37,272 bases of DNA from positions 12,320-49,591 of the forward strand of contig CAYXPX010000001.1 in NCBI GenBank assembly GCA_964467335.1. The letters are read 5' to 3'. The notes below the pieces were generated by a model. That model ran no database searches. It saw only the letters and a program-made list of their open reading frames with translations, and was not told the DNA's origin. Below are positions 1,961-32,903 of the stretch, piece by piece. The translations under genes and the position numbers were made by a program. This DNA comes from Candidatus Woesearchaeota archaeon (lineage in GTDB: Archaea; Nanobdellota; Nanobdellia; SCGC-AAA011-G17; GW2011-AR18). Numbering within the stretch: the stretch's first letter is position 1; each line of letters starts with the position of its first letter.

Positions 1961-3406
1961 TCAATAGCTCTTTCCAAAGTAACATACTGCTTTTGCATCA
2001 TTTCCGCAGTTGAAGCATTTCTTGCCTTTTACCATGGGTTCATCCAGAGGTATTACAATTGATTTTGCTCCATCGCATTTTGCTTTTATGTCTTCTTCGC
2101 ATCTAACTCCAGTGCACCAGTTTCCCTTTACAAGTTTTCTGCTTTTTATGGCATTTTCCATCTCCTTTATGCCTGCAACAAAAACAGTATTTTTTCTCAG
2201 GTGAATCCTTGCATTCTCAAGAAGTTCATCATGCATCCTTGCAAGGGCCTTCACAGCCCTTTCCTTGACGTCTTCAAGCTTCACGCTCTCCTTTTTTGAA
2301 TCATGCCTTGTAACCAGGACCGCCTGTTTTTTTTCAACGTCTTTTGGGCCTATCTCTATTCGTAAAGGAATGCCCTTGAGCTCCCACTCATTAAATTTCC
2401 AGCCAGGAGTATATTCTTTTCTGTCATCAAGAATAGGATTAAGCTCTTTAAGTTCTTTGTAGATTTTTTCAGCAGCCTTCATGACTTTAATTCTGTCTTT
2501 GTCTGAACATATTGGAACAATAACAGCCTTCTCGTCTGCAACATTTGGAGGAAGGACAAGCCCAGTGTTATCAGAGTGCATCATCAGCATAACTCCTATT
2601 GCCCTTGTTGATATTCCCCATGATGTCTGGTGAACAAGCTTTACTTTTTCATCCTGGTCTGAATATTTTATATTAAAAACATCTGAAAAATTTTGTCCAA
2701 GATAGTGGCTTGTAGCGCCCTGTATTGCCTTTCCATTGGGCAGAAAAGTCTCAACGCTCAGTGTATATTCAGCGCCTGCAAATGCTTCATTCTTGGATTT
2801 CCTCCCTTTTATCACAGGAACAGCAAGAAGTTTCTCATAGATTTCTGCGTAATAATTCAGAATTTCATGCGCCTCTTTTTCAGCATCATCCTGGTTTGAA
2901 AATGCAGAGTGTCCCTCCTGCCACAGAAATTCCCTTGATCTTAGGAAGGGTGTTGGATGCTTGAATTCCCATCTTACAACATTGCACCACTGATTTAATC
3001 TCAGCGGAAGGTCTTTGTAGCTTCTTATCCATTTTGGCAGTGTATTGTGTATTATTGTCTCAGAAGTCGGCCTTACAGCAAGAGGATCATTTAACTGGGT
3101 TTCCCCTCCCTTTGTAACCCATGCAACCTCTGCCTTAAATCCCTTAAAATGTTTCTCCTCTTTTTTTAGGAGGCTCTCAGGTATGAACATTGGAAAATAA
3201 AGATTTTTAACCCCGGAATTCTTTATTTTTGGGTCAAAATATTCCCTTATTTTTTCCCAGACAGCAAATGCCCTGGGTCTTAAAATATAACATCCTGAAA
3301 CATCAGTATATTCTGCGAGTTCTGCCTTCTGTATCAGCTGGCTGTACCACTCAGAAAAATCCTGTTCCTTTTTTACGCTTATTCCCCTCTCATCCCTGGC
3401 TTTCAT
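1961..3406 (-). CDS. proS: prolyl-tRNA synthetase, archaeal/eukaryotic type
   Basis: 481 aa. Contains FSEWYSQLIQKAELAEY, RPTSETII, FLRSREFLWQEGHSAF, a class II core, and a C-terminal Cys cluster ending in a terminal Tyr (CYFGKSY), typical of archaeal-type ProRS. Confidence 0.9.
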   Translation of the reverse strand: MKARDERGISVKKEQDFSEWYSQLIQKAELAEYTDVSGCYILRPRAFAVWEKIREYFDPKIKNSGVKNLYFPMFIPESLLKKEEKHFKGFKAEVAWVTKGGETQLNDPLAVRPTSETIIHNTLPKWIRSYKDLPLRLNQWCNVVRWEFKHPTPFLRSREFLWQEGHSAFSNQDDAEKEAHEILNYYAEIYEKLLAVPVIKGRKSKNEAFAGAEYTLSVETFLPNGKAIQGATSHYLGQNFSDVFNIKYSDQDEKVKLVHQTSWGISTRAIGVMLMMHSDNTGLVLPPNVADEKAVIVPICSDKDRIKVMKAAEKIYKELKELNPILDDRKEYTPGWKFNEWELKGIPLRIEIGPKDVEKKQAVLVTRHDSKKESVKLEDVKERAVKALARMHDELLENARIHLRKNTVFVAGIKEMENAIKSRKLVKGNWCTGVRCEEDIKAKCDGAKSIVIPLDEPMVKGKKCFNCGNDAKAVCYFGKSY

Positions 3407-3422
3407 GGAATTTTACTTTCAG

Positions 3423-3442
3423 GGTGTTTAATAAATCTTGTT
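3423..3442 (-). promoter_or_regulatory. BRE/TATA-like promoter element upstream of proS (AACAAGATTTATTAAACACC)
   Basis: A-rich and TTTATTAAA-containing 20-mer lying 16 nt upstream of the proS ATG. It is identical to the 20-mer at 21087-21106. Confidence 0.5.
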
Positions 3443-13313: not shown

Positions 13314-15488
13314 TTATTTTACTCCTTTTCTCTGCCTTATTTGCTGCACAACCTTCTGCTGCAATTCAATTGGCATCTTCTGGTATTCCTGGTCTGCAAC
13401 AAAGAAAGTCCCTCTTCCCTCAGTGGCGCTCCTCAATTCAGAGCTTAATCCAAACATCTCTCCGACAGGAAGTTTTGCCTTAACAACAACATAATTTCCG
13501 TCCTCCTTCATGTCAATGAGCTGTCCCCTCTTGTTTGCAATAAGTTTTGAAATTGCTCCCATGTGGTCCATAAGCCCCTCAATCTGCAGGACCTGGACAG
13601 GCTCAAATATAACAGCAGCAGCCTGCGTCATTGCCTCTCTTATGGCGTCCCTTATTGCAGGATAAACCTGCGCTGGCCCCCTGTGTATGCTGTCCTCATG
13701 AAGCTTGCAGTCATGCAGTTTAACAAGAATTTTAGCGCACGGTTCTCTTGCAAGAGGTCCGCCGTTCATCACCTGCTCAAAGCCGTCAAGCACAAGCTCA
13801 ATAACCTCTCCAAGCTGGACAATGCCCCTTGTAGCATCAACAAAAGCATTGCTGTTGTAAAAATGCCTGAAATTATGCGCTTCCTTTGTTTCAACGCCTG
13901 CCTCTACAAGCGCCTTTATTATGCTGTCATCTTTCTTTTTTATTCTTCCGCCATTTATTCTTCCCTCTTTTATAGCAGCATATATTGGATCTGGGAGCGG
14001 CTCAACAGTCAGGTAAAATTTATTGTGTTTGTTGGGCGTTTTTCCCTCAACTTCAATGCTCTTTTTGGAAACAGTTTCACGGTAAACAACAAGCGGCTGG
14101 CTTGATTTTATCTGCACGCCCTTCTCGCTTATTATCCTGTTTTCAATAATTTCAAGATGCAGTTCCCCCATTCCGCTCATTAAACATTCTCCAGTCTGCT
14201 CGTCAATCTGTATTTTTATTGAAGGATCTTCTTTTGCTGCAGCTTTTAAGACCTCAATTACTTTTGCAAGATCCTGCGGCTTTGTTGGTTCAATCGCCTT
14301 TGTGATTACAGGCTCAAAAATATGCCTCAGCTCTTCAAAAGGCTGTTCAGGTTCAAGTGTTATGGTTTCTCCTGCCTCTGCTTTAATACCTGCAAGTGCA
14401 AGAACATTGCCTGCAACAACATTCTCCATTATCTGCGTCTTGACGCCGTAATACATAAATACCTGCTGCAGTCTTGTTCTTAACTTTGCATTATTAAGAT
14501 AAATCTCAATGCCTGATTCAACAGTTCCTGAAAAAAGCCTGCCTGCAGCAATCTCTCTTCCTGTTCTCGGATCAATCATAATTCTTGTAACGCAAAAAGC
14601 AACTTTGCCGTTTTTATCGCAGTTGATTAAATTTTTTCCCAGTTCACTCTCAATATCACCGTGCCATATCTTGGGAATTCTGTATTTTTGGGCAACTAGT
14701 GGATCTGGAAGATGCTTGATTGCCATGTCAAGAATTACTTCATAAAGAGGTGCATTCTCCCATACCCATTTCTTCCTCTCCTCTTCAGGCATTTCATAGA
14801 TTTTTAGTATGTCTTTGAATGTAATGCCCTTTTTCTGCATAAATGAATAAGAGAGCGCCCAGTTCTCCCTTGCACTGCCGAATGCAACGCTTCCCTCTTG
14901 TATGCCAACCTTCCACTTTTCTTTGTAATCAGGTTCTGCAATCTGTTCAACAAGCCTGTTAAACTCTATTATTATTTCAGTAAATCTTTTCTGGATCTGC
15001 TCAGGAGTATACTGCATCTCTTTTATCAGCCTGTCAACCTTGTTCAAAAACAAAACAGGTTTTACTCTTTCTCTCAATGCCTGTTTTAACACAGTCTCCG
15101 TCTGTGGCATTATGCCCTCTGAAGCGCATACTAAGACAATGGTGCCGTCAATAGCCCTCATGGCTCTTGTGACATTCCCGCCAAAATCAACATGACCGGG
15201 AGTGTCAATAAGATTGATTAAATATTCTTCGCCACCATATTTATGAATCATGGAAACATTTGCTGCATCAACAGTCATTAATCTCTCCTGCTCGTCAGTA
15301 TGCTGCCATGTTGCCATGCCTGCATCAAGATCGCCTGCAGATTTTGTGCTCATCAAGCCCGCTGCTGCCAAAAGATTGTCAGTCATTGCCGTTTTTCCAT
15401 GGTGTATGTGGGCACTGGTGCATATATTTCTGATAAATTCAGGCCTGTTCATTGCCTTGCCAAACATTTTTACTGGATCATCTGCCAT
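13314..15488 (-). CDS. fusA: translation elongation factor 2 (aEF-2)
   Basis: AHIHHGKT P-loop, LIDTPGHVDFGGNVTRAMRAIDG, NKVDRLI, and the diphthamide-region HEDSIHRGPAQ. The start is placed at ATG 15488, 22 nt downstream of TTTATATA; the ORF track starts at 15500. Confidence 0.92.
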   Translation of the reverse strand: MADDPVKMFGKAMNRPEFIRNICTSAHIHHGKTAMTDNLLAAAGLMSTKSAGDLDAGMATWQHTDEQERLMTVDAANVSMIHKYGGEEYLINLIDTPGHVDFGGNVTRAMRAIDGTIVLVCASEGIMPQTETVLKQALRERVKPVLFLNKVDRLIKEMQYTPEQIQKRFTEIIIEFNRLVEQIAEPDYKEKWKVGIQEGSVAFGSARENWALSYSFMQKKGITFKDILKIYEMPEEERKKWVWENAPLYEVILDMAIKHLPDPLVAQKYRIPKIWHGDIESELGKNLINCDKNGKVAFCVTRIMIDPRTGREIAAGRLFSGTVESGIEIYLNNAKLRTRLQQVFMYYGVKTQIMENVVAGNVLALAGIKAEAGETITLEPEQPFEELRHIFEPVITKAIEPTKPQDLAKVIEVLKAAAKEDPSIKIQIDEQTGECLMSGMGELHLEIIENRIISEKGVQIKSSQPLVVYRETVSKKSIEVEGKTPNKHNKFYLTVEPLPDPIYAAIKEGRINGGRIKKKDDSIIKALVEAGVETKEAHNFRHFYNSNAFVDATRGIVQLGEVIELVLDGFEQVMNGGPLAREPCAKILVKLHDCKLHEDSIHRGPAQVYPAIRDAIREAMTQAAAVIFEPVQVLQIEGLMDHMGAISKLIANKRGQLIDMKEDGNYVVVKAKLPVGEMFGLSSELRSATEGRGTFFVADQEYQKMPIELQQKVVQQIRQRKGVK

Positions 15489-15510
15489 GAAGTTCCGCAT
15501 TTAGGAATCG

Positions 15511-15518
15511 TATATAAA
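15511..15518 (-). promoter_or_regulatory. TATA box (TTTATATA) for aEF-2
   Basis: 22 nt separate it from ATG 15488. Confidence 0.45.
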
Positions 15519-15541
15519 CCTTTTGGAGAAAATTCGTTAAG

Positions 15542-15549
15542 TTTATATG
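15542..15549 (+). promoter_or_regulatory. TATA box (TTTATATG) for the 67-aa ORF
   Basis: 22 nt separate it from ATG 15572. It is divergent from the aEF-2 promoter. Confidence 0.4.
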
Positions 15550-15571
15550 CAAAAAGAAACTAAAACTAAAT

Positions 15572-15775
15572 ATGAAAAAAGATAAGGAAAGTTCAGTGCA
15601 GGCAGCCTTGGAAGAAGCAGTATTTATTCTTAATGAGATTAGGATAAATAAAGTAAAAAAACTTGAGGAAACAAAACTTACACCAAAGCAGGAAAAAATA
15701 CTTGAAGAAATTGAAAATGATATTAATGCATGTGTCACAAAATTAGGCCTTCTTCTTCATGCAAAAGAATTATGA
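15572..15775 (+). CDS. small helical hypothetical protein
   Basis: 67-aa ORF. TTTATATG lies 22 nt upstream of the ATG. Coiled-coil-like composition. Confidence 0.35.
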   Translation: MKKDKESSVQAALEEAVFILNEIRINKVKKLEETKLTPKQEKILEEIENDINACVTKLGLLLHAKEL

Positions 15776-15838
15776 GTTGATTTATTGTTTATTTTATACT
15801 AAATAATCTTGTTATAATTTCTGTGGCTGAAATGTTGT

Positions 15839-15855
15839 ATAATTCCTGTTAGTTT
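15839..15855. repeat. 17-nt direct repeat copy 1 (ATAATTCCTGTTAGTTT)
   Basis: Exact match to 17500-17516. It is intergenic, upstream of the 114-aa ORF. Confidence 0.8.
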
Positions 15856-15882
15856 CTCAGAATGAAATGAGGAACTGAAAGG

Positions 15883-15890
15883 TTTATAAA
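15883..15890 (+). promoter_or_regulatory. TATA box (TTTATAAA) for the 114-aa ORF
   Basis: 22 nt separate it from ATG 15913. Confidence 0.45.
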
Positions 15891-15912
15891 GTTTAATCTC
15901 AAACCAATTAAT

Positions 15913-16257
15913 ATGGTAAGACCACTTGAGTATAATACTGGATTAAATTTGCAAGAAGCAGAAGAAAGATACAGAGAAGTAAGGGCTGAATTTGAAAAAG
16001 TTAAATCCCATTATTCTGGATTATTGGGGAGATTTAAAAAAAATTTGTGTGAAGGAGATAATAAAACATTAGTTGACTGTACAGGAGTTCTTCTGCCATT
16101 AGGAATGGAAGCTTCAGTTCAAGATCAAGTCAGGCAAACACAAAGTATTGAAGATACATTACACTATCAAATTGGGCAACTTAATTTTCAGATTATAGAT
16201 TATCTTGCAAATTTCAAAAATACTGGAGTTACAAGATGGTTCGAGCGAACATTGTAG
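15913..16257 (+). CDS. hypothetical protein (114 aa)
   Basis: TTTATAAA (15883-15890) lies 22 nt upstream of the ATG. Helical N-terminus. No family recognised. Confidence 0.45.
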   Translation: MVRPLEYNTGLNLQEAEERYREVRAEFEKVKSHYSGLLGRFKKNLCEGDNKTLVDCTGVLLPLGMEASVQDQVRQTQSIEDTLHYQIGQLNFQIIDYLANFKNTGVTRWFERTL

Positions 16258-16344
16258 GCTTTTTGATAGTACTTAAGATGGTCCCCTCCCATTCTAGACC
16301 CTAAAACCATTAATAATTTAAGTAATCGCTGTTTAATAATATAG

Positions 16345-17490
16345 ATGGTAAAGCTCTACGGAATAACACATAGTGCAAGCATAAATTCATTATTTTTTTC
16401 TATGCCTATAAATATTTCCCCTGCTCCAGAATTACTAGAAGATCTTGCAGAGCTTCCCAAAAGTTCAAAAATTGGTATTGAATGGATTGGAGAAACTGGC
16501 TGGCAGGAAGTCCAAGATGATTTAATGGGAAGAAGTTTTGATGCTGGATTGCAAGAGATCCCATTTTTTGATGACTTGGTTTCCAATTACTGGAGAATTA
16601 TAATTAATGAATTGCAGAGGCATTGTTTACACCCTGTTTTCTTGGAAAATAAAGATGTTTGGCTAAAATATAATCAAGCTGTTGTTGCTTTAGCAAAAGA
16701 AAGGCAGAATCAATTGTTTCATGGAGGAGAAGATGATAGAGATTATCATGAAAAATTATGCAGGCATAATGAAGCAAGAAAAAAAAGAGTTTTGGTCGCA
16801 AGGAGAATTCATGAGATTGAAAGAGACGAAGTTTTACTTTCTGCAGTTTCATCTGGGAATTTAGATGCTGCTATTGTTGGTTATGGACATGCAGATTATT
16901 GGATTGCAAATAAACAAAGAATTCAGCAACAAACAGGCATAATCTTTGATTCTTATTCCAAACAACAGCAAAATGGAAAAGGTTATCCGCTAACAGTCTT
17001 TGTAAGAAATGCAGAGCCAGACAAAAATATTATTTATCAGAGAAAAAGTCTTGAAAGGGCAATTAGATTAATGGAGCAGGGGAGAATTGCTGAAGGCACA
17101 CCAGATTATATTGGAACTTGGTGTGATTATGAGCCATCACAAGGGTATTTTGAAGTTTTTGTCCGTAAAAGAGATGGTGAAGATATTTCTGGAGTTATTG
17201 AGGATGTTTTAGGAAGTGCAACATTTAGTGGTAGAGTTAATAAAAAAGGCATTCAATTCACTAAAAATTATACTGATGCTTCGCCTGAAGCCATTAGAGG
17301 AGAAATACCGTACGAAGCAGAAAGAACAGGACAAGAATTTTATGGATTTTTCAAAGTCTCTGGTTTTAGAGCTCCATTTTATTTAATTGAAGCTGATAAA
17401 AAAGAACCTATTGAAATGGGCATAAGGTTGTTTGAGTTATTTCATCCAGGGAGAGTGCCAAATACAATTTTTCTTAGTGCCTCCGAGTAA
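16345..17490 (+). CDS. TraB/PrgY/Tiki-superfamily-like N-terminal domain fused to an uncharacterised beta-rich C-terminal domain
   Basis: Three N-terminal motifs match the family: LYGITHSAS (compare GTAHVS), IERDEVLLSAV (compare ERDxxM) and AIVGYGHADYW (compare VVGxGHxxG). The C-terminal ~140 aa has a G-x-W...G-x-F...F-x-K-x-Y strand pattern and is not assigned. Confidence 0.45.
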   Translation: MVKLYGITHSASINSLFFSMPINISPAPELLEDLAELPKSSKIGIEWIGETGWQEVQDDLMGRSFDAGLQEIPFFDDLVSNYWRIIINELQRHCLHPVFLENKDVWLKYNQAVVALAKERQNQLFHGGEDDRDYHEKLCRHNEARKKRVLVARRIHEIERDEVLLSAVSSGNLDAAIVGYGHADYWIANKQRIQQQTGIIFDSYSKQQQNGKGYPLTVFVRNAEPDKNIIYQRKSLERAIRLMEQGRIAEGTPDYIGTWCDYEPSQGYFEVFVRKRDGEDISGVIEDVLGSATFSGRVNKKGIQFTKNYTDASPEAIRGEIPYEAERTGQEFYGFFKVSGFRAPFYLIEADKKEPIEMGIRLFELFHPGRVPNTIFLSASE

Positions 17491-17499
17491 TAATTCAAC

Positions 17500-17516
17500 A
17501 TAATTCCTGTTAGTTT
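17500..17516. repeat. 17-nt direct repeat copy 2 (ATAATTCCTGTTAGTTT)
   Basis: Exact match to 15839-15855. It starts 10 nt after the stop of the 381-aa ORF. Confidence 0.8.
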
Positions 17517-17622
17517 AGTCTGACAGAAGGGAAGACCCAAATTTTATTGCAACGTTCCTAAGGAAAATTTTATATTTTAAGAGCCAGAGCTTTTATCAAT
17601 AATCTGCGAAGCAGACAATATT

Positions 17623-18033
17623 CTAGGGGTGCCCACTTATTTTACTTAATTCGTGTGTATTATGGACTTTTATTTTATCTTGCTCTTTTAGTCTCTTGTC
17701 ATTACTCCAAATGGCACAATTCAGTTTCAATGCAAGTGCAAAATAAGCCATGTCAGCAGGGTCAGGAGTAATCTTTTTTGCTTCTCCAACATAAGAAATA
17801 ATTTCTTCCAGAGGAACAATAACAATTCTTCGCTTTAATGTTTCAAGTAGTCTGAAAAATTCTTCTTCTGTTCGTTCTGTTTTCTCAAGAAGTTCCTCTT
17901 TATGCTTTTCCAATTCTGTGAAAATATATTCTGGAGTAAAGAGGTGAAATGAACCGCTAAAGAGAAGATTGTAAGCAAAGCTATCTTTAATCAAAACTGA
18001 AAATAGAACATTGGCATCAATGACGAGAACCAT
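17623..18033 (-). CDS. PIN-domain toxin (VapC-like)
   Basis: MVLVIDANVLF, FTELEKH, DPADMAYFALAL and IWSNDKRL supply the four acidic PIN residues. The start lies 2 nt after the upstream antitoxin stop. Confidence 0.75.
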   Translation of the reverse strand: MVLVIDANVLFSVLIKDSFAYNLLFSGSFHLFTPEYIFTELEKHKEELLEKTERTEEEFFRLLETLKRRIVIVPLEEIISYVGEAKKITPDPADMAYFALALKLNCAIWSNDKRLKEQDKIKVHNTHELSKISGHP

Positions 18034-18035
18034 AT

Positions 18036-18266
18036 TTACCTCGCCAGTTTACGCAACCTATCACTTACAGATTTACTAACCTCTTTTCCTAATCTCAAAG
18101 CGTCAGCTTCACTAAGCTTGCTTTTCTCTTTGAATTTTCTCAGAAACTCCATATCATCTATTTTCTGTATGAATGCTTGCCGAGCTACTTCAGACCAATT
18201 CATCTCTGGAAAAGAATCCATCTTCTTCTTCATCTCATCTGGAACAGCTAAAGTTAGGGTTGTCAT
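18036..18266 (-). CDS. RHH-type antitoxin (VapB-like)
   Basis: 76 aa. LTLAVPDEMKKKMDSFPEMNWSEVARQAF is the common archaeal antitoxin N-terminus. GGAGGT lies 6 nt upstream of the ATG. Confidence 0.6.
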   Translation of the reverse strand: MTTLTLAVPDEMKKKMDSFPEMNWSEVARQAFIQKIDDMEFLRKFKEKSKLSEADALRLGKEVSKSVSDRLRKLAR

Positions 18267-18280
18267 TTGAATACCTCCTG

Positions 18281-18310
18281 TATTATGTGTATATAATTAT
18301 ATTATGTGTA
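18281..18310. promoter_or_regulatory. two direct TATTATGTGTA repeats in the vapB-like promoter region (putative operator)
   Basis: 11-mers at 18281-18291 and 18300-18310 flank an AT-rich TATA-like stretch, 15-45 nt upstream of the antitoxin ATG. Confidence 0.4.
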
Positions 18311-18438
18311 AGTATTTAAATGTTTTTGTTGGTTAAATAGTTACTTACAAATAGTAACATAATATAAAGATTTATAGAGATGTAGTTTATTTATATTTAA
18401 GAAGAATAAAATGTTTAGAAGTAAAAAAGTTCCATCAT

Positions 18439-18448
18439 CTTTATATAT
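18439..18448 (+). promoter_or_regulatory. TATA box (CTTTATATAT) for the 243-aa ORF
   Basis: 23 nt separate it from ATG 18472. Confidence 0.45.
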
Positions 18449-18471
18449 GGGTATTCCTCTTTTATGATTTA

Positions 18472-19203
18472 ATGTTAGCATTACTTAAAAGAAAAATAGA
18501 TCCAGAACAAGCGAGAGTTGAAATTTCTGATGTAATTGAAAGGATTGAAGTAACTGCTTTTCCGATAATGCGAAGTTTTTATGTTGGGAAAAAAGTTGAT
18601 CCTGCTTTGGAAAAAGTTAATCCTGAACATAGAATCAGATTTTTATCTGATTCAAGGAGGGAATTAGGCTATCCAGTTAGTGAAGATGAATTATTCGTTC
18701 CAAATTATGCACGTCAGGAATTTCATTTTGATGTTGGATGTTCCGCTTTTTATCTTGCAGAAGGAACTCTTGTTCTTCCGGGATTGTCCGATAGGACTTA
18801 TGGATTAAAATTTGGGTTACCAACGCATCAATCACGTGAGCATTGGTGGTTTTTGAGATTGAGAGAGAAAAGTAATTCATATCATGGTTGCTCGGGAAAA
18901 AGAGTTGTTAAAGAATTATTAGAAGGTTCTGGAATCTCTGTTACAGGAGATGTTTTTCAAGTTGCTGGGATGGTAGCAGAGAATATCATGTTACATATTT
19001 TGGGACCTAAAGATGATGATGGACAATTGTTGGGGAGACAAAGAGCCCAAAATTTAATTGAAAAGGGATATGGAGCAGCAAGAGAAACCTATAAAGGATT
19101 AATGGAAAAAAGATTAAAACAAGGAATTTCAGAGAGATTACTTCCAGAAACCTTTGTGTATGAATTGGTAGGAAATACAGAGATAAATCCTCTTAACCAT
19201 TAA
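18472..19203 (+). CDS. hypothetical protein (243 aa)
   Basis: CTTTATATAT (18439-18448) lies 23 nt upstream of the ATG. No family recognised. Confidence 0.45.
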   Translation: MLALLKRKIDPEQARVEISDVIERIEVTAFPIMRSFYVGKKVDPALEKVNPEHRIRFLSDSRRELGYPVSEDELFVPNYARQEFHFDVGCSAFYLAEGTLVLPGLSDRTYGLKFGLPTHQSREHWWFLRLREKSNSYHGCSGKRVVKELLEGSGISVTGDVFQVAGMVAENIMLHILGPKDDDGQLLGRQRAQNLIEKGYGAARETYKGLMEKRLKQGISERLLPETFVYELVGNTEINPLNH

Positions 19204-19237
19204 TTCTATTCCATAAGCTTCTTTTTGTTGCCGCTAA

Positions 19238-19840
19238 TTACCTGCTTGAGGCAGCCTGTCTCTCAAGTTCAAGTTTTTTTGCTATTGCTTGGCTTCCTGC
19301 CTGGTCACCTCTGTAAGCAGCTAGAATTTCATCAGCAAGAGCCTGTGCAAGAGTCTTCTTCTTGCCAAAACTTTTGCTGTATGTCCCCTGAGTAAACTGC
19401 CTTAATGCAATGTCAACTCTTCTTTGCGGTGCGCAGTCAACAGCCTGCGGATATCTTGCTCCGCCGTATTCAATGGTTGTAATCTCCTCCCTTGGAGCTG
19501 CATTTTCCAGGGCTTTTACAAAAACTGCAACAGGATTTTGTTTTATATTTTGTTCAATGATTTCAAAGCACTTTCTTACAGCATTATAGACGTTCATGCT
19601 CTTGCCTGTCATATGGCTGCTCGTCCTGAAATGCTTTTTTCCCTTGTGTCCGGGCACCATAAGTTTGTTCATAAGCCTCTCAACAATATTTAGTTTGCTC
19701 TTTGCAAACCTCTGATTTGCATTCCTTCCAAAGCTTCTTGGAACTAGGACAGGATTAAGACCGATATATTTTCTAAGTCCAGGATCCTCTACAAAAACAT
19801 CTTTTATATCCCACATTCCAAATATTTTGAATTCAGCCAT
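19238..19840 (-). CDS. rps7: 30S ribosomal protein S7 (uS7)
   Basis: LVPRSFGRNANQRFAKSKLNIVERLMNKLM, and ENAAPREEITTIEYGGARYPQAVDCAPQRRVDIALR. The start is placed at ATG 19840 (MAEFKIF); the ORF track starts at TTG 19852. Confidence 0.92.
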   Translation of the reverse strand: MAEFKIFGMWDIKDVFVEDPGLRKYIGLNPVLVPRSFGRNANQRFAKSKLNIVERLMNKLMVPGHKGKKHFRTSSHMTGKSMNVYNAVRKCFEIIEQNIKQNPVAVFVKALENAAPREEITTIEYGGARYPQAVDCAPQRRVDIALRQFTQGTYSKSFGKKKTLAQALADEILAAYRGDQAGSQAIAKKLELERQAASSR

Positions 19841-19863
19841 AATCCAGGGCAAATGTCTAAAAT

Positions 19864-20631
19864 TTATAAGCTTTCTGTTTCAAAATCCAGCTTTATCTCA
19901 GTGCTGTAATATGTAGCGCCGCCTGTAAATCTTATCGTGCATATGAATAATCTTGTTTTTTCAGGAACACCGTTGATTTCAAGGTAATATAATGCAGTAT
20001 TATTGGGAAAGTAATTTCCCTTAAGCACAACCTTGTTTTCATCACCCTCGAAATAGTCCTTCATGGAAATATTGTTGTAAACATCCTTTTCATTTTTCTC
20101 ATCATAATAAATAACATTAGAATCTATCCGCCTGCATGTAAAGGAAGAAGACAAACTGCTTAATGGGAGCTCGCCGATGTTTTCCATCTGTGATTTTAGT
20201 ATGCTGCTTCCTGTTACAATAAAATTATCCTCGTTTAAAGTGCATCTTCCCTCGCAGCTGAATTCAGACAGCGTTAGAACGCCAGCGCAGGTTCTTGGGC
20301 AGTCTAAAGGACAGACCGTCATATGGGTTTCATCATTGCATCTCTCTGAAAAATCGCAAAAGCCGTCGCCGCAGCATGTTTCAAGTCTTTTATACTCGCA
20401 TTTTCCAGTTGCCTCATTAAAAACATCATCTGTGCAATCATTGTTGTCATCACACGAGGGAATCTCAAAAGCCTCTTCGTCGTCAGCATTCTCTTTAAGT
20501 GAATCATCAGAAACATTTTCAGTGGCATTGCCAACATCAGCATCTGATATGCTGATTTCTTCAGAAGGACTTGCACAGGCTGTAAAAAAAATTGCAAGGC
20601 ATAAAAATAAATAAAATAAAACTTTTGGCAT
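19864..20631 (-). CDS. Cys-rich secreted lipoprotein-like protein
   Basis: Signal peptide with a lipobox-like FTAC, then an acidic linker. A Cys module follows (CDDNNDCTDD...CEY...CCGDGFCDFSERCNDETHMTVCPLDCPRTC), then a beta-rich C-terminal domain. The ATG shares one base with the rps12 stop (TAATG). Confidence 0.6.
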   Translation of the reverse strand: MPKVLFYLFLCLAIFFTACASPSEEISISDADVGNATENVSDDSLKENADDEEAFEIPSCDDNNDCTDDVFNEATGKCEYKRLETCCGDGFCDFSERCNDETHMTVCPLDCPRTCAGVLTLSEFSCEGRCTLNEDNFIVTGSSILKSQMENIGELPLSSLSSSFTCRRIDSNVIYYDEKNEKDVYNNISMKDYFEGDENKVVLKGNYFPNNTALYYLEINGVPEKTRLFICTIRFTGGATYYSTEIKLDFETESL

Positions 20632-21068
20632 TATCTCCTGCCCTTCTCAATCTTGCCGCTAAGCAGGGCATTCAGGCTCTGGTCATTTACCTTTATAACC
20701 TGCCACCTTACACAGGGAATATCACCTTTTGCCCTTCCCATCTTGCCGCCGATGCACTCAATAATAACCTCGTCATGCTCATTAATAAATCTCTGTGCAT
20801 TGTCTCCTGGAATAAATGCAGTAATCTGTTTTCCGTTTTTCAATAGCTGAACAACACACGCCTTTCTCATGGCACTGTTTGGCTGCTTTGCCTCAAGCTG
20901 CCTTTTCTCAAGAACTATTCCCTTTGCCTGATGTGCTCCCTCAAGAGGGTCAGCCTTCGCCTTAAGATTCAGTGCTCTTTTAACAAACCATTTATTGCTC
21001 CATCTGGCCTTTTTCCTTCTGTTTTTAAGTCTCTTTCCTGTCATTAAGCCATTGGACTTGTTTCCCAT
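20631..21068 (-). CDS. rps12: 30S ribosomal protein S12 (uS12)
   Basis: [46 protein letters not shown] and [22 protein letters not shown]. Confidence 0.93.
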
Positions 21069-21086
21069 ATATATTAAAAGAAAATA

Positions 21087-21106
21087 GGTGTTTAATAAAT
21101 CTTGTT
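21087..21106 (-). promoter_or_regulatory. BRE/TATA-like promoter element upstream of rps12 (identical 20-mer)
   Basis: Same 20 nt as at 3423-3442, lying 18 nt upstream of the rps12 ATG. Confidence 0.5.
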
Positions 21107-21108
21107 GT

Positions 21109-23565
21109 TTAATCTCTGTATCTAAGTCTTACAGCAACTGTATATCCTGTACCGCCGCCACCGCCGTCTCCGCCTCCATCACCACTATGACCTCCTCCGC
21201 TATCTCCGCCAGAATATCCTCCCTCTCCTCCGCTATAACCTCCGCCTCCAAATCCTTCACCAGAATATCCTCCGCTCCCTTCGCCCCCGCCACTAAAGCG
21301 GTAACTTCCCTCAGAACCTCCTCCGCTAAAGTAAGATTCATATCCTTCAGGAGGGCTAAAACCTTCAGGTACTGAAAATCCCTCTCCATATGGTCCGCCA
21401 ACATATCCCCCGCTAGTGTAGGCTTCATAAGCTCCGCTGTCTATCTCTCCCCCATGCTCAAAGTAAGCCTCATAACGCCCCTCCCTATCCTCTTCACTTA
21501 AAGAAAATACCTCGCCAAATATTCTCTGTCTGTCCTCTTCAGAATATGAACTTCTGAATTCTTCTCTATGGCTGTCAAATCTCCCAAGCATCCCGCTCAC
21601 AGAACTTTCATAGGTTCCAGCGCGCTCTGGATGTGCAGTCAAATAATCTTTTTCAGGACCGTCAGGCAATGAATCAACTCCCCCGGCAAGATAAGCCTCG
21701 TAAGCCTCTCTAACACTCTCAACATGTGCAGCAACATCAGGAACAACAAAGAACTCAGGCCTCCTGTTGAGTACATCAGGATTATTCTCGACAAAATAAG
21801 CAGCCTCCTTTCCAAATCCAAACTCAGCATGCTCAATCAAAAACTTCTCATATTTTTTAGTCATCTCAGGATTAATATTCTCAAGTCTCTTTGCCTCTAC
21901 GCTGAGGTCATCTGCCAGATTTGGGTTATCATCAAGATAAGAAGCATAATCTTTTTGATAAGTTACTAAATAAGTTTCACGGAAGTTCTTAAAATCTTCA
22001 GGATTTTCAGAATCTCTCATTGCATCTATAAATTCATGAGGAATATTCTCAACAGGAGAAAATGTTAATCCTGTGTCTATGAATCTCTCAAAATTATAAT
22101 AGTCAATAGCATCAGGAACATCATTGCCGTTTGCATCATCATCATCCTCGTTCAATTCTCCGTCGCCGTCAATGTCATCGTCATCATAATCATAAATTCC
22201 ATCATCATCAGTATCAATAAAATCACCATAGTTTTCAGCAACTTCATCCCTGTGTTCATAGATATCATCTAAATTGCCTGAAAATGTCAGGCCATCTTCA
22301 ACTCCATCTCCATTTATGTCATCATCCTCTCCATTCAGAATTCCATCGCCATCAAAATCACCGCCGGCAAAATCATCAAACTCCTCAATATCATCTGTGC
22401 CGCTTCCGTCAGCATCGCTATCTTCCCAGTCAACTATGCCATCATCATCAAAGTCATTGTCAGGCAGCGTAACAGCAAAAATCTCAAGTCTCTGCCCGTC
22501 ATATTCCTCCTGGCTTATTAATCCATCGCCGTCGCTGTCAGTAAATCCTAAATCTGTTAATTCAGTCTGTCTTTCTTCACTGTTTATATCAGCCTGAATT
22601 GGGGCAGGAAATATGCTGGGCCTCTGTTCATCATATTCATCAGCATCAATAAGACCATCGCCGTTTGTATCAGTAAATCCTATTTCCCTTAGTTGGTTTT
22701 GACGGTCAACACTATCTATTATTTCTTCTATATCATCGTCAAAAAGTCCATCGCCATTCCAGTCATTCTGGATATCGCTTTCGCTCATAGGCTGACCATT
22801 CCAGTCATACAATCCGTCGCCGTCAAGATCAAAGTCATCCTCATTAACAACTCCATCACCATTAAAGTCAGCATCCTCCATAGTCATTCTGCCGTCTCCA
22901 TTCAGGTCATCATTGTCTCCATCCCCGTCAGGGTCAGTATCAATATCATCAGGAATCCCATCACCATCAAAATCTCCAGGACCAAGGTTTGTCTCAAAAT
23001 CATCTGAAAAGTCTCCTGTATTTTGTTCCAGTTCACTAAGGTGCTGCTCCATAACATCCAAATGGCTAAGCAGTAGGGTATTGCCGCTTTCCTCAGCAGC
23101 GCTTCTCATTTGTTCTAAAATTGCTCCAAGTTCATCAATCTCAACATTAAGCTCAAGCAGGTAATTATCAGCAGTTTCCTCAACACCCTCTGAAAGCTGG
23201 TCATCCAGCTCATCAACATAGAATGAAATTGTGTTGCTTGTATATAATCTTCTGATTCTTAATGCAGCGTCCATCACAGCAGGATCTCTTGATTCAATTG
23301 CAATATTAACCAGGGCATTAACATCATCACTAAGTTTATTATCAGATTCCCTGACACCAGAAAATGATTCCTTGAGGTTATCTCTTTCAATAGCACTCAA
23401 TGCAGGAGCAACATTATCTGCTCTTAATCCTGACAATGAAGAAACACTCTGTGCTTCCTCCTGGGTTTCAGCCTCTTCACTAACCTGCTGCTGCTGACAG
23501 GAAGCCAAAATTAAAATCAAAACTAGAAAAAATACCCAAAATACGCCATATCTTTTTTTAAACAT
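21109..23565 (-). CDS. large hyper-acidic secreted lipoprotein-like protein with DxDxDG calcium-binding-type repeats and a Gly/Ser/Tyr-rich tail
   Basis: The start is placed at ATG 23565 ([23 protein letters not shown], with lipobox-like LASC), with a TATA box 23-24 nt upstream. Many DFDGDG, DPDGDG, NGDG and DIDGDG loops are present. There are two FTD(T/S)(N/D)GDGLI..EEYD units. The C-terminus is made of GGYSGG-type repeats. Confidence 0.65.
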
Positions 23566-23588
23566 AGAGTATTTCAAGAAAGCAAATA

Positions 23589-23597
23589 GTATAAAAA
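23589..23597 (-). promoter_or_regulatory. TATA box (TTTTTATAC) for the acidic lipoprotein-like gene
   Basis: 23-24 nt separate it from ATG 23565. This implies the gene is its own transcription unit inside the superoperon. Confidence 0.4.
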
Positions 23598-23633
23598 CTT
23601 TGTGAAAATACGTTTATAATTATCAAGTAGCAC

Positions 23634-24044
23634 TTAAGCAACAACCACAGTATCAGAAACATCGAAATAATTTTTGATAATTTTATTTATTTTTTTTAAA
23701 TTTTCCCTGTTCCTGCCGAGAATCCTGCCCCTCAAAAAAGAATCGCCGGCACGTATCTTCAAAGTTTTTTCTTCAAGAAAAATTTCATCAGCCTTGATTG
23801 GATATATTAAATTTGCAGCAAACTTGCAGACATCGTCTGAAAATGCCAGAATTTTAACTCTTTTTTTTAGGATATCTGAAATTTTTTTGATATTTGAATT
23901 GTTTTTTCCAATTGCGATTTTCACATTTCCAGTTTCAACAAGAAAAACAAGAACATCACTGTCAAAAAAGCAGTCCTTCAGTTTTGCTCCAGTAAGGCTC
24001 TCAAAAAGATTAATGTATCCTATCGACTCTGTTGTAAGTTTCAT
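23634..24044 (-). CDS. nusA: archaeal NusA-like protein (two KH domains)
   Basis: 136 aa. YINLFESLTGAKLKDC and GRILGRNRENLKKINKIIKNYF. It sits in the conserved position after rpl30e. Confidence 0.8.
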   Translation of the reverse strand: MKLTTESIGYINLFESLTGAKLKDCFFDSDVLVFLVETGNVKIAIGKNNSNIKKISDILKKRVKILAFSDDVCKFAANLIYPIKADEIFLEEKTLKIRAGDSFLRGRILGRNRENLKKINKIIKNYFDVSDTVVVA

Positions 24045-29909: not shown

Positions 29910-32903
29910 TTAAACTTTAGTTTTCACCCCGAGATTATCAAGTGTTTTTTTTACCTTTTCTTCCTGCGAGTCTCCCTTTGATGCAACACAAAGCAGTGCT
30001 ATATTTTTTCTTAAGCCTATTGGTGTTCCCTCAGGAGTCTCAATAGGGCAATTGTGGGTTATAAACCCATTAGCAATTAATGTATGAGTATTTTCTTTTG
30101 TGGTAAGGTCTCTGACGTCATCTATTTCCTGTGCGCTCTTTTGTATAATTCTCTCCCATACTGCCCCAGATTCCCCTAATTTCGAAGATTCCAGCCATTT
30201 AGTATACGATTGCAATAAATTTTGTGTATTTCGGGTTTTCTCATATATTTTTTGGTTAAATAACCACCCATTGATTACCCTATAATTTATTCCAAACCTT
30301 TCTGATATTCTTTTAGGTGTTAACCCATCTGAATATAATTCTTTGACATCATTCTTTAATTTTTTTCTTTGGTTTATCACCATTTCTCTTATTCTCAGCC
30401 ACTCGCCAATATAATTCGAGTTCATTTCCTTTTGTTTGCAGTATCTGTAACCTATAACATTTAGGGTTTTCTTTATATTATTGTAATCATTTGCAAATAT
30501 AATTTTGCATTTAAGCATAATTGCCTTGTCTTTTCTTATATAATCTTCAGCTAGTTCTATATTTTTTATTTTAACACCAAGATACATGAAAAGTTTTTTT
30601 ATATCTTCAGCAAATCTCTGTATATTATTTTTTAACTCTTTTCTCTTATGAAAAATAAAGTTCCCTAAATTTAATTTTTCTCCAGACAATCTTTCATTTC
30701 TTATTGATATCCTTGGCTTGGAACCATCACCGCCAAGCAAAGCAGCTAAAAATTCCCTTTTAACTGATAGGCTAGACTTAAATAACCATTTAGGAACATA
30801 CAACTCAGTGTCTGTTTTTCTGCCAACAGGAGCACCAGCACAAACCATTAAAGAATGTAACGCCCCGCCCTTGCTCAACATAAAAGTTCTATAATTCACC
30901 TCTCTATCAGACAATTTTATTTTAGTATCCTTTTGTATTATTTTGGACGGCTCAAACCCCAATAATCTTATATCATTAGCCACAGCCTCAGCATCATTCC
31001 TGCTGCCGCAATAAAATTCCAGGTTATACTTTCCACAATGCCCATCTGAAAATAAGTGGCCCATTAACCTTGCAATTATCTCAATTTTATAGTTGTTTGT
31101 AGTTAAGGGTAGCAATTCATTTGAATGCAGTTCTTTTATATCATGTTTAAATCTTTTTTGGTAATTTTTTTCAATATCGCTAACACTAACTATCATTTCT
31201 CCTAAATTTTCATTTGGTAATTCTGGAGTATTAATTTTATCAAGAGTAGGATAAACAGCAACATTATCTCCGACATTAAGTTTAGCAGCATCAATCCAGC
31301 CATGTTTTGTATAAAAAGGATGGTCCTGCGTGGCAAGTATCTCTCTTCCGCTTTCAGAAACCAATTTATAAACAGTTTTGCCCATTAATTTGGGATTTGA
31401 AGTATAATATTTGGATATACTTGATTTTATTAGTGCCTTATCTTTAATATTATATGTCAAAATCTTATGATGATTCCAGCAATTTTGCAGATTTTCTAGA
31501 GTTTTCGTTGAATATCCGTCTGCCAGCAAAACATTTGTATCCTTGCTCAAGCATAATCTTCCCCAATGCGTCGGATGCAGCGCCCTTGCCTCAAAATTTT
31601 CCTGCGTGCTTGTCAGCAGGGAAACAACCCTCTGGAGATGTGAATAAGTTGCAAGTATATTTGTTCTGTCAATATTTTGGCTGACTCCCTTTCTTCCGCC
31701 TGTCCATGTGCCTGTTGCAAGTGAACTCTTTATATTTGATGTAAGAAGCTCATCTCTTATTATTATTTTGATGCTCTGGAATTTTCCTCTCTTTACAAGC
31801 CTCTGGAAGTTATACAGTATATCCTGCACAAGGCTTCTAAGGTTTGTTCTTATAAGGTCCTCAAGTAAATCCCCTGCAAGCTTGAGTCTTTTGTTGGCAT
31901 AATGATCCTTGTCAGGCAGTGGAAGTCCGTCGCTGCTTGCCTGCAGAAATTTTCTTATCATTTTGCATAAGTTATATGCTTTTACAATCCTGTCTTTTGG
32001 CGAAGTTCCAACATGCGGCAAAAGATATCTGTCAAGCTGCTCTTTTGTTCTCTCATATTTTGCTTCCTTTGGCTGTGAAATTCCTGCCCTTTTTGAAAGA
32101 TATTCAAGTGCATCATCCTCTGTCTTTATGCCGGCTGAATCATATAAATTTATAAAAACAGAGTCATAGTTTTTTTCGGGGCAGATCATCTTTACTATCT
32201 CCTGATCCTTGGTCATTCCAAGTGCTTTTAGGATAGGGAAAAGTGGTATTCTCTTAAATCTTGTAAATGTTAAGTAAAAAATTCCATCCTTCATCTGCTC
32301 AATAGTATGGGGTATTCTGTAGCTTCCCATCTCTGAAAAAACCCTTGCAACATACTCGCTTGGTCCTATCTCTTTTTTTTCTATAAAAATGCGGTTTGAT
32401 GCAAGATCTTCAACAGTGACAAGAACTCTCTCATTTCCGTTTATCATAAAATATCCGCCAGGATCATCAGGATCCTCGCCTTTTGAAATAAGTTCCTCTC
32501 TCTTAAGTCCGTGAAGATGGCAGTATTTTGACCTGAGCATTATCGGAAGCTTTCCAATCATTGTAACAAAATTTTCTCTCTGTATGTCATCAACATATGC
32601 GCTGACCTCAAGAAACATCGGAGCAGAGTATGTCAGCATCCTGAGCCTTGCCTCTGATGGAAACACATCTCTTTTGCTGCCGTCAGCTTCAATTATTGTG
32701 GGTTTTTCTATCCATATTTTTTTTAATTTAATAACAAAGCTCTCAACTTCCTGGGGAATAATTGTAGGGGAAATATCTCCGACTTCATCCACAAGAATCT
32801 GAAGTCTTCTGTCAACAAAATCATTAAAGCTTTGTATATTCGCCTCTACAAAAGGATTTTCCTTAAAATATTGTTTGATAAGATTATGATATCCCTTAAC
32901 CAT
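29910..32903 (-). CDS. rpoB2: DNA-directed RNA polymerase subunit B'' (N-terminal half of B) interrupted by an intein
   Basis: 997 aa. Extein motifs GYFMINGNERVLV, HYANKRLKLAGDLL and HPTHWGRL / CPIETPEGTPIGLRKN flank a 501-aa insertion. The extein sums to 496 aa, a normal B'' size. Confidence 0.9.
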   Translation of the reverse strand: MVKGYHNLIKQYFKENPFVEANIQSFNDFVDRRLQILVDEVGDISPTIIPQEVESFVIKLKKIWIEKPTIIEADGSKRDVFPSEARLRMLTYSAPMFLEVSAYVDDIQRENFVTMIGKLPIMLRSKYCHLHGLKREELISKGEDPDDPGGYFMINGNERVLVTVEDLASNRIFIEKKEIGPSEYVARVFSEMGSYRIPHTIEQMKDGIFYLTFTRFKRIPLFPILKALGMTKDQEIVKMICPEKNYDSVFINLYDSAGIKTEDDALEYLSKRAGISQPKEAKYERTKEQLDRYLLPHVGTSPKDRIVKAYNLCKMIRKFLQASSDGLPLPDKDHYANKRLKLAGDLLEDLIRTNLRSLVQDILYNFQRLVKRGKFQSIKIIIRDELLTSNIKSSLATGTWTGGRKGVSQNIDRTNILATYSHLQRVVSLLTSTQENFEARALHPTHWGRLCLSKDTNVLLADGYSTKTLENLQNCWNHHKILTYNIKDKALIKSSISKYYTSNPKLMGKTVYKLVSESGREILATQDHPFYTKHGWIDAAKLNVGDNVAVYPTLDKINTPELPNENLGEMIVSVSDIEKNYQKRFKHDIKELHSNELLPLTTNNYKIEIIARLMGHLFSDGHCGKYNLEFYCGSRNDAEAVANDIRLLGFEPSKIIQKDTKIKLSDREVNYRTFMLSKGGALHSLMVCAGAPVGRKTDTELYVPKWLFKSSLSVKREFLAALLGGDGSKPRISIRNERLSGEKLNLGNFIFHKRKELKNNIQRFAEDIKKLFMYLGVKIKNIELAEDYIRKDKAIMLKCKIIFANDYNNIKKTLNVIGYRYCKQKEMNSNYIGEWLRIREMVINQRKKLKNDVKELYSDGLTPKRISERFGINYRVINGWLFNQKIYEKTRNTQNLLQSYTKWLESSKLGESGAVWERIIQKSAQEIDDVRDLTTKENTHTLIANGFITHNCPIETPEGTPIGLRKNIALLCVASKGDSQEEKVKKTLDNLGVKTKV
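30051..31553 (-). mobile_element. intein with double-motif LAGLIDADG homing endonuclease domain in RpoB''
   Basis: Begins with Cys (CLSKDTNVLLADG) right after HWGRL. Ends with THN followed by the +1 Cys (CPIETPEG). LAGLIDADG-type motifs are LMGHLFSDGH and FLAALLGGDGS. There is an HTH-like segment (LTPKRISERFGINYRVINGWL). Confidence 0.85.

Follow-up and report, generated by a model that had tools for sequence, protein, structure and literature searches.

The window analysed here, a 37,272-nucleotide (nt) stretch of DNA from a Candidatus Woesearchaeota archaeon, carries on its minus strand, in order, rpoB' (with an intein), rpoB'', rpoA', rpoA'', NusA-KH, an 822-amino-acid (aa) open reading frame (ORF), the gene for ribosomal protein S12, a 255-aa ORF, S7, a 3.7-kb interval and elongation factor 2 (EF-2). 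It is an ordinary piece of chromosome from an AT-rich DPANN archaeon of Woesearchaeota/Nanoarchaeia type, to judge by the source names attached to its homologues. S7 and EF-2 are adjacent in the canonical archaeal cluster. In the window, the 3.7-kb interval between them holds a 243-aa ORF, a VapBC pair, a 381-aa gene, a 114-aa gene, a doubtful 67-aa ORF and two copies of an exact 17-mer, ATAATTCCTGTTAGTTT. The sequence-only reading of this DNA had described the 17-mers as direct repeats at the edges of a two-gene cassette, and our scan of the window confirmed that both copies are exact, intergenic and on the + strand, and that they bracket the 114-aa and 381-aa genes (Table 1). Copy 1 ends 57 nt before the ATG of the 114-aa gene, whilst copy 2 begins 9 nt beyond the stop codon of the 381-aa gene. 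No further copy was found in the window when up to three mismatches were tolerated. Comparison with metagenomic loci shows that the two 17-mers are diverged members of one conserved, strand-specific intergenic element with a predicted secondary structure, and it is this element family, rather than the cassette, that is the object of interest.

Table 1. Coordinates of the element copies and neighbouring genes in the window
Feature	Position	Strand	Remarks
Element copy 1, short and degenerate	15831..15896	+	Covariance model R1: 37 bits, E = 3e-5
17-mer copy 1	15839..15855	+	3' strand of possible hairpin P0 (AUAAUUCC) and conserved linker UGUUAGUUU
Element copy 1, hairpin P1	15856-15871	+	CUCA-GAAUGAAA-UGAG
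114-aa helical protein gene	15913..16257	+	30 homologues at 50-88% identity
381-aa two-domain protein gene	16345..17490	+	AlphaFold model, predicted local distance difference test (pLDDT) 88.7
Element copy 2, full length (core 17492-17580)	17492..17641	+	R1: 85.5 bits, E = 1.5e-14
17-mer copy 2	17500..17516	+	Preceded by lead AAUUCAAC
Element copy 2, hairpin P1	17518-17536	+	GUCU-GACAGAAGGGA-AGAC
Element copy 2, P2	~17538-17573	+	Long A/U stem, internal loop UUGCAAC, inner hairpin UUCC-UAA-GGAA
VapC (PIN, 136 aa) and VapB-like (76 aa) pair	17623..18266	-	Context, not part of the element

A metagenome scan for the exact 17-mer returned at least 120 contigs, many of them with matches unrelated to the element. 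In about 40 unrelated contigs among the matches listed, the 17-mer heads an identical hairpin architecture built from differing hairpin sequences. Its parts follow in the order 17-mer, C, hairpin P1, hairpin P2 and (A/G)AGUU, giving an element of ~70-90 nt in which P2 is followed by AGAGUU. The core consensus comprises a semi-conserved lead, (A)AUUGNNN, then AUAAUUCC-UGUUAGUUUC, the variable P1, P2 and the closing (A/G)AGUU. Forms of P1 include GUUUUCCG-CUACGAAGUC-CGGAAAAC, UUUUCCCA-UACGAAGUG-UGGGAAAA, GUCU-GACCAACGGGA-AGAC and CCCUC-AAUA-GAGG. P2 divides the copies into class A, with a short NNNC-GUCC-GNNN hairpin, and class B, with a long A/U stem, a UAGUGCAAC internal loop and an NCC-GAA-GGN tip. 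Within the core, the least variable stretch appears to be the 17-mer, which is predicted to be single-stranded. The exact 17-mer was also seen within another, unrelated conserved context in ~12 contigs, several of them labelled human gut, and in 13 viral contigs, none of which has the element architecture. The first 1.3 kb, in the matched orientation, of a giant-virus-labelled contig (L114/L142) holds 3-4 near-copies (ATAATTTCTGTTAGTTT + TATTCTCTC) in a local repeat unrelated to the element.

The paired positions of the hairpins covary. In the class A alignment (11 sequences), 99.2% of cells at paired positions can pair, compensatory changes occur in 9 of the 12 pairs and the covariation score is 0.72, against 0.23 for shuffled alignments and at most 0.20 for slid partners. 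The class B alignment (nine sequences) is 87% paired, with compensatory changes in 9 of 13 pairs and covariation of 0.47 against 0.23 when shuffled. Both are plain MAFFT alignments. A third alignment of 30 sequences, which was fitted to the covariance model and so leans towards structure, gave 92% pairing, 12 of 13 compensatory pairs and covariation of 0.58 against 0.22. P1 and P2 are thus real hairpins, their pairs being kept by compensatory changes beyond the shuffled and slid controls.

A further possible hairpin, P0, would be formed by bases 1-8 of the 17-mer (AUAAUUCC) and a GGAAUU or GAAUU lying a few bases 5' of them. In a marine subclass this pairing grows to an 11-bp helix, GGAAUUAUCAG/CUGAUAAUUCC, which closes a well-folded inserted domain of ~100 nt. 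At its 5' end this upstream 'U' domain reads GAAACUAACA[UC]GGAAUU, which is complementary to the 17-mer with its following C, and a related U domain is present in many other copies. Additional conserved blocks lie 3' of AGAGUU in several copies. Because of the U domain and these downstream blocks, the element is modular and often much longer than its core. A near-identical well-folded domain, TAACATCGGAATTATCAGAAGTTTTTTGGTGAGGCAACCCACACCAAAAAATTTGGGAAACATTCGGGAAATCGCTTGGCGATTTAGGCGAAGCCGACCGAATTTTCCTG, is found in the ~125 nt upstream of the 17-mer in L028, L037, L041, L043, L044, L073, L084, L089 and L098. Marine contigs with this common upstream domain have differing downstream parts, and the junction falls exactly at the start of the 17-mer.

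To place the window copies in this family, a covariance model (R1) built from the nine seed sequences of the class B alignment was run on the window. It gave exactly two significant matches, at the two 17-mers, and nothing else below E = 1. Copy 2 is itself one of the nine seeds, which makes its score partly circular, whilst copy 1 is not a seed. Copy 1 is laid out as a 5' AAUG..GU lead, the 17-mer, P1, a vestigial P2 and a terminal AAAGUUUAA, and positions 15831-15873 are 93% identical to metagenome locus L117, which bears a full element. The conserved 3' extension of copy 2, which reaches ~17641, shares sequence with the final codons of the oppositely oriented PIN gene. Positions 17493-17641 are 82% identical over 152 nt to L088 (591-742), and shorter matches to this region were found in L074, L030, L105, L110, L054 and L028. 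Copy 2 is a full member of the family and copy 1 a truncated or degenerate one. The two copies have no extended sequence homology beyond the 17-mer, similarity breaking off abruptly at both its edges; their further likeness is structural and lies in the hairpins P1 and P2. Their P1 hairpins belong to different subtypes, GAAU-type in copy 1 and GUCUGAC-type in copy 2. Since the 17-mers run into different P1 and P2 forms whose subtypes are shared with other genomes, the two window copies are old paralogues and not a fresh duplication.

This result also bears on how far the repeat could be a chance match in AT-rich DNA, which the sequence-only reading had considered improbable in 37 kb. As a bare statistic that argument fails, as the longest exact repeat reached at least 17 nt in 41 of 200 third-order Markov simulations of the window (~20%). 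Locally the repeat is exceptional, with control segments of 800 nt and 400 nt taken ~2 kb apart sharing at most 13 nt once two draws that had sampled the 17-mer repeat itself were set aside. What excludes chance is homology: both copies match a structure-plus-sequence model of a conserved element from other contigs, and the copy 2 region shares its long match with an unrelated contig. We therefore give a chance origin almost no credence.

We next consider the proposal that the 17-mer is an att core or a target-site duplication left by insertion of a cassette carrying the 114-aa and 381-aa genes. Exact, sharply bounded direct repeats at both edges of the gene pair, inside a conserved ribosomal cluster, are what such an insertion would leave. 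The same 17-mer, however, is a common intergenic motif that heads a structured element at the ~40 unrelated metagenomic loci, and the window copies continue into P1 and P2 subtypes found in other genomes. Amongst the fetched loci there was no empty site with a single repeat copy. The supposed partnership of the two genes did not hold up either: eight distinct loci with a 381-family gene have no 114-aa homologue, and two distinct loci with a 114-family gene have no 381-aa homologue, so the two genes do not form a conserved pair. Homologues of the 114-aa protein occur in other settings that have no 381-family gene, for example upstream of rpoH, and in L007 a copy of the element lies ~70 nt upstream of one. 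At eight other loci no direct repeat longer than 14 nt brackets the 381-family gene, and the neighbours vary. Scanning the ORFs of the segment and its surroundings with Pfam, NCBIfam and PHROG, and most other long ORFs of the window with Pfam, detected neither an integrase nor a transposase, bearing out the earlier statement that no integrase is present. We consider insertion of such a cassette highly improbable as the source of the repeat.

The 17-mer could instead serve the local genes as a common promoter, terminator or binding motif for a regulator, given that both copies are intergenic, with copy 1 upstream and copy 2 downstream of a gene. The window does contain a repeat of this kind. 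An exact 20-mer, GGTGTTTAATAAATCTTGTT, longer than the 17-mer, occurs at 3423-3442 and 21087-21106, just upstream of the minus-strand genes for prolyl-tRNA synthetase (ProRS; 1961-3406) and ribosomal protein S12 (20631-21068), and with a TTTATTAAA box within each copy on the gene strand it looks like a shared promoter. The 17-mer behaves differently. Copy 2 lies between convergent genes, and elsewhere the element has no consistent orientation with respect to its neighbours: all 38 copies inspected are intergenic, with all four combinations of neighbour orientation in roughly equal numbers. The likely promoter of the 114-aa gene is a TATA-like TTTATAAA box 20-28 nt before the ATG, which lies downstream of the 17-mer and is overlapped by the 3' part of element copy 1. 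Compensatory changes in the hairpins would not be expected of a protein-binding site in duplex DNA. A role as a local regulatory motif is thus very improbable.

The element also failed to match known families. Rfam gave no match at gathering or permissive thresholds in the window and ten element-bearing loci, with only noise at E up to 10, and full-text matches to the 17-mer core in the literature were confined to primers or other sequences with no bearing on it. The family is thus uncatalogued. Several specific identities were tried and rejected. ARAGORN found no tRNA or split tRNA in the window and 28 element-bearing contigs, and no T- or D-arm features or T-loop motif were seen; the absence of tRNA genes is itself uninformative, as tRNA density is also low in other DPANN loci. 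C/D-box or H/ACA guide RNAs, RNase P RNA, signal recognition particle RNA and hammerhead-type ribozymes were set aside on inspection, their box motifs and universal regions being absent and Rfam silent. A 13/17 match of the 17-mer to the reverse complement of the universal 907-925 region of 16S rRNA was judged to be chance (~0.1 expected when scanning rRNAs). Resemblance to archaeal origin recognition boxes (ORB) or dif sites is only partial, and those sites are single-copy or origin-linked. CRISPR arrays have near-identical repeats every 25-40 nt, whereas copies of the element are diverged and 0.6-4.5 kb apart.

Copies of the element cluster. L028 has four of them in 6.5 kb, L054 has four in 7.2 kb and L110 has three, with a spacing of up to 4.5 kb and up to five ORFs between copies. 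L105 and L034 each have two copies at one contig end and none over the remaining 10-12 kb. Other Woesearchaeota-type loci, ~180 kb in total, have a single copy, in L007. Orientation is strict: the 23 copies in nine contigs (window included) occupy one strand per contig, and these 14 concordances have a probability of 2^-14 (~6e-5) under random orientation. The order of P1 subtypes is also near-constant in nine clusters, running GAAU-type, GUCUGACC-type, (GAAU-type), class A, type X and UUAGG-type, with L118 and the second L079 copy as exceptions. The genes between copies are mixed in function, including GNATs, an NTPase, PanE, isochorismatase, methyltransferases, MNT/HEPN proteins and unknowns, with aminoacyl-tRNA synthetases nearby, and no conserved protein was found to neighbour the element copies.

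In 4 of 14 adjacent pairs, the flank 3' of one core (from AGUU) is complementary to the flank 5' of the next (to AAUUG), bridging 0.6-3.3 kb of genes. Pairing energies of these flanks are -53.5, -44.4, -42.0 and -39.1 kcal/mol, against a background of -22 +/- 6 with a 5th percentile of -32.4, and they hold exact inverted repeats of 12-29 nt. Because each pair has its own sequence, it is complementarity, rather than sequence, that is maintained in the flanks. The conserved AGUUG/CAAUU end of the helix contains a G.U pair on the + strand, which on the other strand would be a C.A mismatch.

With confidence just above even, we lean towards the reading that the elements are structured RNA modules transcribed from the + strand, or that they at least fold as + single strands. 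We favour it because of the rich, modular secondary structure with GNRA-like loops, the + strand G.U pair at the AGUUG/CAAUU end, and an arrangement resembling archaeal rRNA processing stems and split-tRNA leader/trailer pairing. That the copies are set among housekeeping genes also speaks for it. In archaeal 16S/23S processing stems and in the split-tRNA leaders and trailers of Nanoarchaeum equitans, complementary sequences pair across kilobases or in trans. As in those systems, unique complementary sequences abut conserved structured pieces of the element and would bring them together. In contrast to them, the loops enclose protein-coding genes of both orientations and not rRNA, inspection showed no recognisable bulge-helix-bulge motif, and the pieces resemble one another instead of being halves of a known RNA. 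Under the RNA reading, the 3' flank of one module would pair with the 5' flank of the next, looping out 0.6-3.3 kb of genes, and this long-range helix would bring adjacent modules together. The 114-aa and 381-aa genes would then be ordinary chromosomal genes flanked by two modules of such a locus, which as a whole would sit in the S7-EF-2 interval. The window pair has no long-range helix, and its upstream module is decayed.

A number of observations weigh against this reading or against the evidence for it. The flanks of the window pair reach only -18.3 kcal/mol, within background, and no long-range complementary partner above background was found for the window copies further away either. Counts of wobbles in the two hairpins, 14 G.U and 9 A.C, leave the choice of strand undecided. 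Promoter and terminator support is weak: of 30 copies, 9 have a TATA-like box between -45 and -15 and 7 have five or more consecutive T. Genes lie inside the 'loops' on either strand, which would be odd for RNA processing and equally fits a role in DNA. The constant order of P1 subtypes may mean that the clusters are orthologous loci, reflecting synteny in related genomes. Finally, the metagenome matches were ascertained on the exact 17-mer and so overstate its conservation: copies found with the model vary inside it (TAAATTCCTGTTGGTTT, TTAATCGCTGTTATATT and CTAATTGTTGTTATATT), and the 17/17 conservation in the first match list is partly an ascertainment effect.

The elements might alternatively be DNA recombination sites that fold in single-stranded DNA and bound mobile gene cassettes, integron-like or Xer/single-stranded-hairpin-like, with a different site architecture. 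Core-by-core recombination would excise a circle in which the complementary flanks rejoin as a long stem capped by the core, and the 114-aa and 381-aa segment would be one cassette or its remnant. The copies are indeed co-oriented and clustered in arrays with edges, and in the best cases each segment is flanked by a unique inverted repeat abutting the cores, irrespective of gene orientation. The 5' edge of the core coincides exactly with a mosaic junction: L054 and L041 have 190 nt in common downstream and differ upstream, whilst L028 and L044 have 125 nt in common upstream and differ downstream. Genes typical of cassettes are present (GNATs, isochorismatase and MNT/HEPN, with VapBC next door), and the window segment sits inside an otherwise canonical S12-S7-EF-2 cluster. 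A homologous methyltransferase gene lies beside a GUCUGACC-type copy in L105 (1-575) and L110 (5683-6342) in opposite orientations, and in L074 (3060-3677) its homologue instead follows the next element copy; this arrangement hints at inversion of the flanked segment.

Clusters of attC sites without an integrase (CALINs) have been reported in Archaea, including Nanoarchaeota, so that integron-type arrays have a precedent there (Ghaly et al. 2022, PMC9668308). Like attC sites and CALINs, the element forms co-oriented arrays between short, varied genes (co-orientation in nine of nine contigs, with ORF orientation mixed), folds as a single strand and is diverse in sequence whilst conserved in structure, and most archaeal arrays likewise have no integrase nearby. 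The core also contains GTTAGTT, which is close to the attC R' consensus GTTRRRY. The architectures nevertheless differ. In an attC site, a single imperfect palindrome 55-140 nt long, the ends (the inverse core sites R'', RYYYAAC, and R', GTTRRRY) are conserved and the middle is variable, whereas in the element it is the middle (the linker and three separate hairpins) that is conserved, and complementary halves, where present, lie on opposite sides of genes. Canonical attC features were absent from the window copies on inspection, and inspection of the copies and their flanks revealed no upstream partner for GTTAGTT within 150 nt of either. An inverted copy occurs only in the marine 'U1' subclass (GAAACTAACA[TC]GGAATTATCAG ... 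CTGATAATTCCTGTTAGTTTC).

Other features also run counter to recombination. The order of modules is constant while the genes between them vary in content and are mixed in orientation, the reverse of cassette shuffling, and housekeeping genes such as aminoacyl-tRNA synthetases adjoin copies. The window pair lacks complementary flanks, and, L007 excepted, no elements flank the 114-aa and 381-aa genes at their other loci. No recombinase, IntI included, was found in the window or in a listing of the 25 most frequent Pfam families, each with more than one member, of 84 ORFs from 13 element-bearing contigs. IS200/IS605-type ends and REP/PATE elements share with the element a short conserved single-stranded motif beside hairpins, strand-specific co-orientation and an intergenic position. 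Against this likeness, no TnpA, TnpB or RAYT gene was seen, and copies within a contig are highly diverged with compensatory changes, unlike near-identical recent insertions. We regard recombination sites as the main rival identity, possible but less than probable.

More speculatively, and with a degree of belief well short of even, we suggest that the elements are ordered modules of a large new archaeal RNA locus, with long-range helices looping out genes, or else non-integron cassette-exchange sites in DPANN archaea. If true, the RNA locus would have gene-containing intervening sequences, or trans-assembly as in split tRNAs, and on either account the element class would be one not yet described. 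To our knowledge, DPANN archaea, with their tiny genomes, have almost no experimentally studied non-coding elements. The element would be a structured RNA of a new class or a recombination site of a new kind that shapes variable gene neighbourhoods. An RNA organised in split modules in this way would be unusual in any of the domains of life. As a recombination site, it would explain the entry of accessory genes (toxin-antitoxin pairs, GNATs and the 381-aa family) even into the ribosomal-protein and RNA-polymerase cluster.

The two genes between the window copies were also characterised. The 114-aa family is conserved in Woesearchaeota/Nanoarchaeia-type contigs, and the protein has no match in Pfam, NCBIfam, PADLOC, PHROG or the PDB. 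The 381-aa protein likewise matched nothing in Pfam, NCBIfam, PADLOC or PHROG and no PDB sequence. Its family, newly delimited here as a TIKI-like domain joined to an avidin-like barrel and lacking a Pfam model, comprises 557 cluster representatives at E up to 1e-3, of which 205 fall below 1e-30, nearly all of them full length. The sequence-only reading had recognised two domains, the second beta-rich, and had taken them for a fusion. The domains stood and the local fusion did not: because the family is large and nearly all of its members are full length, the two-domain architecture, standard among the representatives, is ancestral. Nothing ties the function of the 381-aa protein to the element.

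The N domain (residues 1-245) is alpha/beta, with a predicted parallel beta-sheet flanked by helices as in the TIKI/TraB superfamily. Residues G6, H9, E46, [D/E]101, R160, [E/D]161, G179 and H182 are conserved family-wide, H9 in 90% of members, E46 in 96%, [D/E]101 in 98%, H182 in 94% and R160 in 100%. H9, E46, [D/E]101 and H182 follow the predicted strands 2-7, 42-45, 96-99 and 175-179, respectively, placing a 2His/2Glu set at the C-terminal ends of the predicted sheet. Such an arrangement has been described for the TIKI/TraB/PrgY/GumN/ChaN/erythromycin-esterase superfamily (PMC6254334). Strands 1, 2 and 3 are followed by G-x-x-H, E and D/E, respectively; an R-[ED] then lies in a helix, ~22 residues ahead of the second histidine motif, G-x-G-H, which follows strand 4. 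E. coli YbaP (H41, E67, R228-N229, H252) has the same motif order with similar spacing.

The TraB/Tiki motifs proposed earlier are thus conserved family residues in the TIKI/TraB order, but they gained no profile support and no significant fold support. None of 99 family members matched PF01963 at E up to 1, and the hhalign probability was 0.2% both for YbaP by itself and for a profile of 12 YbaP sequences, a narrow one (at least 65% identity) of low power. In Foldseek searches with the N domain, ChaN (2g5g) had the best template modelling (TM) score at only 0.31 (E 1.4, probability 0.13; 0.63 with the full-length model), and erythromycin esterase (Bcr135 3B55), RRSP and HopBA1 were absent from the match lists. 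The TraB/Tiki assignment is therefore a reasonable lead and not a finding.

The C domain (residues ~255-348) is modelled by AlphaFold as an eight-stranded beta-barrel. Foldseek matched it to wilavidin, shwanavidin, fatty-acid-binding protein (FABP) and nitrobindin with probabilities of up to 1.0, and to wilavidin and shwanavidin with target-normalised TM scores of 0.55-0.60. In common with the avidin/streptavidin, FABP and nitrobindin (calycin-like) folds it is an eight-stranded antiparallel barrel of ~95 residues, with E of 0.05-0.15 and identity of 8-12% to avidin and FABP barrels. Its conserved residues (W259, E270, D287, K307, Y309 and Y323) are specific to the family. The modelled fold suggests that the C domain binds a small ligand. 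As a whole, the 381-aa protein probably combines a barrel that binds small ligands with a hydrolase of TIKI/TraB/ChaN/erythromycin-esterase type or with a related binding domain that is inactive.

The surroundings of some 381-family genes are also of note. A distant homologue, P0010, lies in L005 (7510-11857) next to a cluster that resembles type IV secretion genes and encodes a VirB4/TraC-like ATPase as well as a TrbC/type IV secretion system pilin. Homologues P0003 and P0005 have a divergent MNT-type nucleotidyltransferase gene upstream. In L012, a tRNA-Met gene (1185-1260) lies 50 nt downstream of a 381-family gene.

In the window itself, the canonical NusA-S12-S7-EF-2 cluster (13314-24044) is interrupted three times. 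Between NusA-KH and S12 lies the 822-aa ORF (21109-23577), which has no Pfam match and carries acidic 50-nt repeats at 22159-22967. Between S12 and S7 lies the 255-aa ORF (19864-20631), which is Cys-rich with an N-terminal hydrophobic segment. The third interruption is the 3.7-kb S7-EF-2 interval bearing both 17-mers. Its VapC matches PIN_2 (PF10130, E 1.6e-26), whilst the VapB-like protein matches NF050799 (E 1.9e-6) below the curated cut-off. The two genes are adjacent on the same strand, a PIN toxin with a small upstream antitoxin, as in toxin-antitoxin pairs. The 67-aa ORF upstream of element copy 1 (15572-15775) has no homologue in the fetched loci and no family match, and may not be a gene. 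Further on, the window encodes phosphoketolase, acetate kinase, ParA, glycosyl-transferases and ProRS. The RNA polymerase B' gene (29910-32903) encodes 997 aa with a PF14890 intein splicing domain at residues 459-951; as the L010/L011 orthologue has only 496 aa, the window B' carries an intein.

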